From a virus, in IMG/VR virus record IMGVR_UViG_3300021963_009201, positions 126,034-190,033 of that record: 64,000 nt of DNA. One strand, given 5' to 3'. How positions within the stretch are numbered: the stretch's first letter is position 1; each line of letters begins with the position of its first letter. Shown piece after piece: positions 36,141 to 36,931 of the stretch. The translations under genes and the position numbers were made by a program. Under the pieces are notes generated by a model that was given only the letters and a program-made list of their open reading frames with translations, did not search any database and was not told where the DNA came from.

Positions 36141-36196
36141 GCTGTTTCTTGTGCCCCACAATAGGACACTCATCAGGGCGTTAATTCGCCGACAGC
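36141..36196 (-). ncRNA. type III hammerhead ribozyme HH-1 (predicted cleavage after C36191)
   Basis: GCUGU-C-GGCG(AAUUAA)CGCC-CUGAUGA-GUGUCC(UAUUGUG)GGGCAC-AA-GAA-ACAGC. Confidence 0.85.
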
Positions 36197-36224
36197 CCAG
36201 GTTTAGCCCTTACCCTGGATGGGC
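36197..36224 (-). ncRNA. 28-nt H-type pseudoknot motif D, copy 1
   Basis: GCCC-AU-CCAGG-GUAA-GGGC-UAAA-CCUGG; abuts HH-1. Confidence 0.6.
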
Positions 36225-36231
36225 GTAGAGA

Positions 36232-36492
36232 TCAGTATTCCTTGACCTCAATTACCGACATGGCCGTAACTCTAATCTTAGAGTTGGGATCCTGCCGGTC
36301 TTTCTTCGTTTCAGCCAGATACTCATCGCGAGCCTGGCAATCATCGAAGATCCAGCCTGAAGTAGGAACCTTGCAAAAGTTCCCGAATTCGTCCAGGCCA
36401 TGAAGAAAGTGGGTTTCTTCGTCCCACACTTCCCACTTCACTCCATGGTGGGATTCCATGCAGTTAAAGCAGAAGGATTCTTCATTTTCCAT
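36232..36492 (-). CDS. small Cys-containing hypothetical protein
   Basis: CFNC; GGGGGUG RBS before ATG at 36492. Confidence 0.65.
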   Translation of the reverse strand: MENEESFCFNCMESHHGVKWEVWDEETHFLHGLDEFGNFCKVPTSGWIFDDCQARDEYLAETKKDRQDPNSKIRVTAMSVIEVKEY

Positions 36493-36525
36493 ATTCACCC
36501 CCTTTCAGTGTTGGTAGTTGGTGAA

Positions 36526-36572
36526 TGGAGTTCCCCGCAGAGGAATCGAACCTCTGTGCAACCATTCGGGGA
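36526..36572 (-). ncRNA. tRNA-like mini element B, copy 2
   Basis: UCCCCG-AAUGGUUGCA-CAGAGG-UUCGAUU-CCUCUG-CGGGGA-ACUCCA. Confidence 0.7.
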
Positions 36573-36619
36573 GGTAGACATACGTTGATGGGGGTATGTC
36601 AGCCCCAGGTATTACTTGT

Positions 36620-36862
36620 TCAGGCAGACTGAGTCGCGGGATCATACTCGACCCATTGCTCAATCCGGCGTCCATCCCTTGTAGTGCAGGTAAACATGAT
36701 ATTACCTGGTAAATCAATACAGATGGTCACATCGGTATACATTGGTTTGTCACCTTCCTTATAGTTAAGATACACTGAGTACTGTTGCGGATACACTTGA
36801 GTAGACTCAAACTTAACCTCGTTGCCACGAAGGGTGTTGATGGTTCCATTGATGTATGACAT
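36620..36862 (-). CDS. hypothetical protein
   Basis: UAGGGAG RBS directly after HH-2. Confidence 0.7.
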   Translation of the reverse strand: MSYINGTINTLRGNEVKFESTQVYPQQYSVYLNYKEGDKPMYTDVTICIDLPGNIMFTCTTRDGRRIEQWVEYDPATQSA

Positions 36863-36876
36863 TGTATTTCTCCCTA

Positions 36877-36931
36877 GTGTTTCTTGTGCCCCGTTGTTAG
36901 GACACTCATCGGCCTGTTAATTCAGGGACAC
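36877..36931 (-). ncRNA. type III hammerhead ribozyme HH-2 (predicted cleavage after C36927)
   Basis: GUGU-C-CCUG(AAUUAA)CAGG-CCGAUGA-GUGUCC(UAACAACG)GGGCAC-AA-GAA-ACAC. Confidence 0.8.

Follow-up and report, generated by a model that had tools for sequence, protein, structure and literature searches.

A phage genome carries two type III hammerhead folds with an AA dinucleotide between stem II and G12

Among small ribozymes, the hammerhead has received the most study, and its core is treated as fixed. In the type III hammerhead (Rfam RF00008, clan CL00010), three helices open at stem III are combined with a GUC or GUU cleavage triplet, a CUGANGA strand, a GAAA strand and an A15.1-U16.1 pair. 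Here, we examine two elements, HH-1 and HH-2, in a stretch of 64,000 nucleotides (the window) that covers positions 126,034 to 190,033 of the IMG/VR virus record IMGVR_UViG_3300021963_009201. They belong to a family, called the AA family below, that shares these features with RF00008 but differs from it in having an invariant AA between C11.1 and G12, a stem I of 4 bp and a fixed AAUNNA hexaloop. We think it likely that both elements are self-cleaving and belong to a separate, phage-borne subfamily of type III hammerhead ribozymes, in which the AA would take part in the docking of stem I on stem II.

Natural hammerheads that deviate from the consensus core have been described before, several of them in intergenic regions of phages. 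Perreault et al. (2011) reported A6a, U13a, the 2a/2b insertions of saltern phage and metagenome hammerheads, A6C, U15.1-A16.1, U3-A8 and, in a viroid, U4C (PMC3088659). None of these variants lies between positions 11.1 and 12, and they are rare single cases, in contrast to an AA that extends through a whole subfamily. The filter used in that study discarded matches with a mispair adjoining the core (PMC3088659), and Eckert and colleagues (2023) took stem II, GAAA and stem III as a single uninterrupted block (PMC10085705). Search pipelines drop matches with mispairs or insertions adjoining the core (PMC3088659, PMC10085705). In a literature search of incomplete coverage, no description of an insertion at 11.1/12 or of the AA subfamily was found. 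The CChMVd (+) hammerhead studied by De la Pena and Flores (2001) reportedly carries an extra A between A9 and G10.1 that helps activity; it is likewise a natural extra adenosine where stem II meets the core, but it is a single nucleotide on the opposite strand in one viroid, whereas the AA family has two nucleotides on the 3' strand throughout a phage family. Few RNA cores are as fixed as that of the hammerhead, and the AA subfamily is a clean and widespread departure from it that has apparently gone undescribed; it does not make a new class of ribozyme. It can serve as a natural experiment to learn whether the core tolerates a junction bulge or makes use of it.

The two copies in the window

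An earlier note, made from the letters of the DNA, had read the two elements as type III hammerhead folds with AA between stem II and G12, with stems I and III swapped between the copies and with U4C in HH-2, and the sequence reads exactly so in each respect (Table 1). Both copies have a GUC cleavage triplet. Stem III is GCUGU/ACAGC in HH-1 and GUGU/ACAC in HH-2, and stem I is GGCG/CGCC and CCUG/CAGG, respectively, closing an AAUUAA loop in each case; stem II is GUGUCCU/GGGGCAC in both. The 5' core strand of HH-1 (CUGAUGA) follows the pattern C3 U4 G5 A6 N7 G8 A9, and its core is the full consensus apart from the AA. The corresponding strand of HH-2 (CCGAUGA) lacks the U at position 4, and in neither copy is C11.1 contiguous with G12 A13 A14, the AA standing between them. 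C17 is position 36191 in HH-1 and 36927 in HH-2, and the predicted cuts 3' of it fall between 36191 and 36190 and between 36927 and 36926. The three-way junction is the predicted minimum-energy fold of both copies, with stem III continuing into the Shine-Dalgarno (SD) sequence of the gene that follows. HH-1 and HH-2 are the only copies in the whole 190,033-bp genome.

Detection did not depend on the window sequences themselves. A covariance model, R2, was trained on 44 IMG/VR relatives with the window sequences left out and was run with filters off over both strands of the 64-kb window, where it gave 74.9 bits for HH-1 (E 8e-20), 66.0 bits for HH-2 (E 4e-17) and no further match at E<=1. Because a model built without these sequences picks exactly these two sites, chance is excluded as their origin. 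RF00008, in contrast, has a gathering score of 48.5 bits and gave 24.8 bits for HH-1 and no match at E<=10 for HH-2; among the AA-family relatives scanned with it, only L012:7325-7384 scored, at 26.9 bits. The suspicion in the earlier note that standard models may miss this variant is confirmed by this search, and since current models miss the subfamily, hammerheads are under-counted in phage metagenomes.

Table 1. Coordinates of the hammerhead folds and associated features (window positions unless a contig is named; sequences of HH-1 and HH-2 in RNA sense)
Feature	Position	Strand	Description
HH-1	36141..36196	minus	Type III hammerhead fold (sequence read, R2, minimum-energy fold); GCUGU C GGCG AAUUAA CGCC CUGAUGA GUGUCCU AUUGU GGGGCAC AA GAAAC AGC
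AA dinucleotide of HH-1	36149..36150	minus	Between C11.1 (36151) and G12 (36148)
HH-2	36877..36931	minus	Type III hammerhead fold (sequence read, R2); GUGU C CCUG AAUUAA CAGG CCGAUGA GUGUCCU AACAAC GGGGCAC AA GAAAC AC
AA dinucleotide of HH-2	36884..36885	minus	Between C11.1 (36886) and G12 (36883)
Core position 4 of HH-2	36911	minus	C in place of U (U4C)
SD of gene after HH-1	36133..36139	minus	AGGGAGA; ATG at 36126-36124 (sequence, fold)
SD of gene after HH-2	36869..36875	minus	AGGGAGA; ATG at 36862-36860 (sequence, fold)
Partial copy of HH-1 3' end	36054..36067	minus	14 nt, GGCACAAGAAACAG; inside downstream open reading frame (ORF)
Pistol ribozyme	25963..26039	minus	RF02679, 59.7 bits (gathering score 34.5); adjoins tRNA-Met; on the hammerhead strand
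Sister-group examples	L002:1686-1746, L019:7811-7879, L015:9100-9165		Type III, 5-bp stem I

Related strains were compared in DNA metagenome contigs of four runs (X4, X8, X9 and X10) and in contig L291. At core position 4 of HH-2, this genome shares its C with a near-identical strain of run X4; the contigs of X8, X9 and X10 have U4 (A on the plus strand at 36911), as does L291 (CUGAUGA), and U4C occurs in no other member of the AA family. It is therefore a private, strain-specific mutation. Stem II changes from U.G to C-G at 36899 and, in L291, from U-A to U.G, and the loops, including loop II, carry indels and other changes, with the AA kept throughout. This variation is compatible with the hammerhead fold.

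The AA family and its sister group

A pattern search of viral contigs and metagenomes, as the earlier note had proposed, returned many relatives of the AA type. A descriptor scan over all the DNA gathered counted at least 76 distinct sequences in which a stem I of 4 bp and a 6-nt loop go with the AA. The consensus runs N-GUC, a 4-bp stem I closed by G-C, AAUNNA, CUGANGA, stem II, AA, GAAAC and stem III. The hexaloop is chiefly AAUUAA, with AAUGAA, AAUCGA, AAUCAA and AAUUGA also occurring, and stem II has 6-9 bp, usually of the form G-N-N-U-C-C...G-G-G-N-N-C.

The compensatory changes that the earlier note had seen between the two copies extend to all three stems of the family. Across 41 distinct members, standard pairs filled 94.8% of cells and the covariation score was 0.513, compared with 0.163 for shuffles (0/500 reached the observed value) and at most 0.127 for slid registers. 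The members had been pre-filtered for pairing in stems I and II, so that the 100% pairing of these two stems follows from the selection, which does not hold for the variety of pair types. Stem I positions showed two to four Watson-Crick pair types and stem II positions 10.2 and 10.3 four to five, and in stem III, which was left unfiltered, AU, UA, CG and GC were all seen at the same positions.

The AA was found just as consistently by scans that did not demand it. When any 0-4 nt were permitted between stem II and GAAAC, all 50 of 50 loci had AA. A looser scan fixed G-AAUNNA-C, a 4-bp stem I and CUGAUGAG and left 12-30 free bases before GAAAC, so that the junction was unconstrained (pattern GAATNNACNNNCTGATGAG-N12-30-GAAAC). 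It returned 75 well-formed hammerheads (42 distinct) from viral contigs, all with exactly AA, and at least 50 (at least 39 distinct) from metagenomes, again all with exactly AA among the matches listed. These two counts are not independent, since some metagenome contigs duplicate IMG/VR contigs; taken together, all 81 distinct well-formed matches listed have exactly AA. A generic pattern with no loop constraints (CUGAUGAG...CAAGAAAC) would have an estimated 2,000 or so chance matches. On the sequences compared, the view of the AA as a conserved feature of the variant holds, and it characterizes the family rather than being a private mutation.

Cultured phage records gave no match to the 2.3-kb region or to a consensus member, the window's own exact stem II sequence used as a pattern had no match in viral contigs, and the contigs from species genomes of bacteria and archaea (185,579 genomes) gave a single match. 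That match, in a metagenome-assembled genome of Latescibacterota, has a G+C-rich stem II of different sequence, with the AA still present. One 10-kb marine viral contig, L036, has four hammerhead-type elements, including L036:3305-3396 (-) and L036:1401-1489 (-): two belong to the AA type, a third is RAGATH-1-like (37.6 bits) and the fourth, a canonical type III hammerhead, has a 43-nt insert in stem I.

A sister group of 22 distinct type III sequences often shares contigs with the AA family (L002, L015, L019, L021 and L075). The two groups are alike in having the same hexaloop, UCC at stem II positions 10.4-10.6 and, on the same strand, a bulged dinucleotide whose first base is A. They differ in that the sister group has a 5-bp stem I (with an AAUUAA loop) and a canonical C-GAAAC junction, its invariant bulge being an AU on the 3' strand of stem II, one or two pairs (usually two) above the core. 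This group is also under the Rfam threshold (L002:1687-1745 scored 33.4 bits). The descriptor scan separates the two types cleanly: at least 19 sequences combined a 5-bp stem I and a 6-nt loop with an uninterrupted junction. Where stem I of a type III candidate reached 6-8 bp, an insertion was mostly lacking and AA never occurred.

Docking, translation starts and the question of activity

Every fast natural hammerhead requires a tertiary contact between stem I and stem II. A conserved Watson-Crick pairing between the loops, or between a loop and a tail, was looked for in the AA family and none was found. Kissing between loops I and II is possible where loop II is UAAUUAU, and it was rejected as a family feature since it is impossible in the window copies and in many others. 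A pseudoknot of loop I (AAUUAA) with UUAAUU between the SD and the AUG had been noticed by eye in several relatives and was rejected as well, the motif showing no enrichment (6/41 cases compared with 27/390 background initiation regions, p=0.11). The co-occurrence of the hexaloop, the AA and the conserved UCC/GGG suggests a different stem I-stem II contact. Because the AA co-occurs with the short stem I geometry, we propose that the two adenosines are not tolerated damage but part of how this subfamily docks stem I on stem II. The AA, bulged out between G10.1-C11.1, which is the final pair of stem II, and the catalytic G12, would contact the hexaloop or stem I directly or, alternatively, would set the rotation of stem II so that the conserved U.G/C-G/C-G block at pairs 10.4-10.6 faces the loop.

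HH-1 and HH-2 are intergenic within a run of small minus-strand genes, and their 3' ends lie 1-2 nt ahead of the AGGGAGA of the next gene. In the predicted folds, the AGG of the SD after HH-1 pairs with CCU at 36201-36199 and the SD after HH-2 pairs with UUCCCU upstream of the cleavage site, prolonging stem III in both cases. Both would be co-transcribed with this operon of small genes, and each ribozyme would cut the transcript 3' of the GUC and split the upstream from the downstream message. The former would end in a 2',3'-cyclic phosphate, and the latter would start with a 5'-OH and the folded ribozyme directly before the ribosome-binding site. Because an upstream pyrimidine run pairs with the SD and extends stem III, cleavage could free the SD, the ribosome-binding site being unmasked once the short 5' fragment is lost. 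Such unmasking is plausible and is partly supported by the predicted pairing in 57 AA-family members, where the mean SD pairing probability was 0.46, compared with 0.28 when the upstream flanks were shuffled. Sequestration of the SD as a universal trait of the family was rejected and is retained as a partial feature, the predicted probability of pairing with the upstream strand exceeding 0.5 in only 25 of the 57; in many relatives, a local hairpin presents the SD in its loop instead.

In these phages, an SD of the form UUGGAGG often lies in the loop of a short hairpin right after a ribozyme or a tRNA-like element, for example CUAAC-UUGGAG-GUUAG. Such hairpins were seen at L002:3206-3230, in L007 (-) after 3804, in L020 (-) after 4984 and at 35495-35515 (-) in the window, and they may be a shared design for displaying translation starts.

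Ogawa and Maeda (2008) and Wieland and Hartig (2008) reportedly engineered hammerhead switches in which an extended stem of the ribozyme conceals the ribosome-binding site. There, as proposed here, the SD is paired in a stem extension and cleavage can free it; those devices are said to be artificial and mostly to use stem I, whereas the present arrangement is natural, involves stem III and is predicted in part of the family. An SD within stem III makes the long-open question of phage hammerhead function directly testable with a reporter, and a complete hammerhead of about 55 nt may serve as a compact tool. A more far-reaching proposal is offered tentatively, as possible rather than probable: that the short stem I, the AAUNNA loop and the AA form an unrecognised compact tertiary module in which the AA is needed for fast cleavage at physiological Mg2+, with stem III added as a cleavage-gated translation switch.

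Several points weigh against active ribozymes with a docking role for the AA. An insertion beside the general base G12 could be expected to disturb the stacking of A9.G12 on stem II. Co-occurrence is what suggests a tertiary role for the AA, and covariation has no purchase on that role since the dinucleotide is invariant. The fold energy z-scores are modest (-1 to -2.4), and the incomplete spread of SD pairing described above counts on the same side. HH-2 deviates from the consensus twice, by the AA and by U4C, and is probably the slower of the two; U4C lowers activity in vitro, yet it is viable in a viroid (PMC3088659). In saltern hammerheads, cleavage in standard conditions is impaired by the 2a/2b insertions of the core (PMC3088659).

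What speaks for activity is the pattern of conservation. C3, U4, G5, A6, G8, A9, G12, A13, A14, A15.1-U16.1 and G16.2 are invariant in the AA family, the U4C of HH-2 excepted, and the A15.1-U16.1 pair is kept in 41/41 sequences. Only N7 (U, A or C) and H17 (C or U) are free, and these are the two positions that active hammerheads can vary freely. As far as sequences can tell, this is the conservation pattern of an active hammerhead, and it argues for self-cleavage of HH-1 and HH-2. It also bears on the best surviving alternative, in which the elements are hammerhead-derived but catalytically dead, the AA having inactivated the core and the fold having been retained, for example, as a site recognised by a protein or nuclease, as a stabiliser of the mRNA 5' end or as a translational operator. 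The insertion does adjoin G12, the Rfam scores are far under threshold, stem III overlaps the SD, and other core insertions cripple activity (PMC3088659). Nothing, however, would require such an element to hold eleven single-stranded core bases invariant across at least 76 distinct sequences with only N7 and H17 drifting. True decay is seen in two copies, L028:3643-3702 and L079:13755-13812, on contigs that also carry family members; they have a single A and have lost GUC or C3, and they illustrate the effect of a loss of constraint. We regard a dead element as improbable.

A second alternative, less probable still, is that the core is re-registered, with the AA pairing with G8 and A9 as tandem sheared G.A/A.A pairs that extend stem II, so that G12-A13-A14 are displaced and the active site is non-classical. 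A 5'-GA-3' opposite a 5'-AA-3' could form tandem non-canonical pairs, and a base-specific role of this kind would fit the finding that AA is never replaced by another dinucleotide. On the other hand, G12, A13 and A14 never vary and are followed immediately by A15.1, the arrangement of all hammerheads; C3 and G8, partners in the active structure, are invariant too; and the similar design of the sister group has a bulge that is unable to pair with G8 and A9.

Genome context and recombination

The window is the final 64 kb of a single 190,033-bp contig (G+C, 41.8%) from an uncultivated large phage that occurs in marine, estuary and freshwater metagenomes, and it holds nine tRNAs, a transfer-messenger RNA (tmRNA), a terminase and a Pistol ribozyme. 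Searches of the genes flanking HH-1 and HH-2 against Pfam and PHROGs found a rhomboid domain upstream of HH-2 only. Downstream of the relatives lie 89 distinct proteins in 51 clusters, most of them 50-150 amino acids long and without a known family; ten of these proteins were checked, and they included one ATPase and one member of a family of unknown function. This context matches that of published clustered hammerheads of phages and prophages, which likewise punctuate polycistronic transcripts around changing genes and whose function is unproven (PMC3088659; PMC6765202). Those hammerheads differ in being mostly of type II or I, with a loop pseudoknot and a consensus core, and the AA family is nearly absent from bacterial genomes.

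The ribozymes also appear to act as boundaries of gene cassettes. The 14-nt partial copy of the HH-1 3' end and its counterpart at 36142-36155 are direct repeats that bound an 88-bp segment (36054-36141). This segment is absent from related-strain contigs of runs X4 and X10: past the loose end at 36142, their sequence goes on with what comes after 36054 in the window. One X9 contig joins 36128 to 36865 and lacks the cassette of two genes and a tRNA-like element between HH-1 and HH-2, and contig depth peaks over HH-1 in all four metagenomes. The conserved ribozyme sequence is evidently a recombination joint as well, but recombination would be a consequence and not the purpose, because compensatory stem changes are selectable only in RNA. 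That selection acts mainly on the DNA, with the repeat serving as a joint between cassettes and the RNA fold incidental, is thus very unlikely: the repeat-bounded indel, the X9 junction, the depth peaks and the high diversity of the downstream genes would suit it, but double changes of that kind occur in all three stems, the wholly different stem sequences of the two copies (GGCG versus CCUG) lower DNA homology, and the loss of pairing with a conserved primary sequence that would be expected is the opposite of what the relatives show.

In the window, the downstream ORF encodes a membrane protein; the 88-bp segment provides it with a new SD and ATG and with about 24 in-frame codons at the N-terminus.

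For the operon as a whole, punctuation of the transcript by several processing devices is the most economical reading, because it has, besides the hammerheads, two tRNA-like minihelices, with the Pistol ribozyme further along. The minihelices lie between small genes at 36520-36575 (-) and 35535-35590 (-) and consist of an acceptor-like stem (UCCCCG/CGGGGA), a T-arm with GGUUCGAUUCC and then ACUCC, without an anticodon arm. They were not called by ARAGORN and may be processing signals for RNases P and Z. The metagenome contigs show a peak of depth over 36530-36593. The tmRNA of the phage, at 3763-4155 (-) and with a score of 98.3 bits, encodes the tag peptide ADEYVCDWDAEMATLLEEEGALV, unlike the usual bacterial tag, which ends in LAA.

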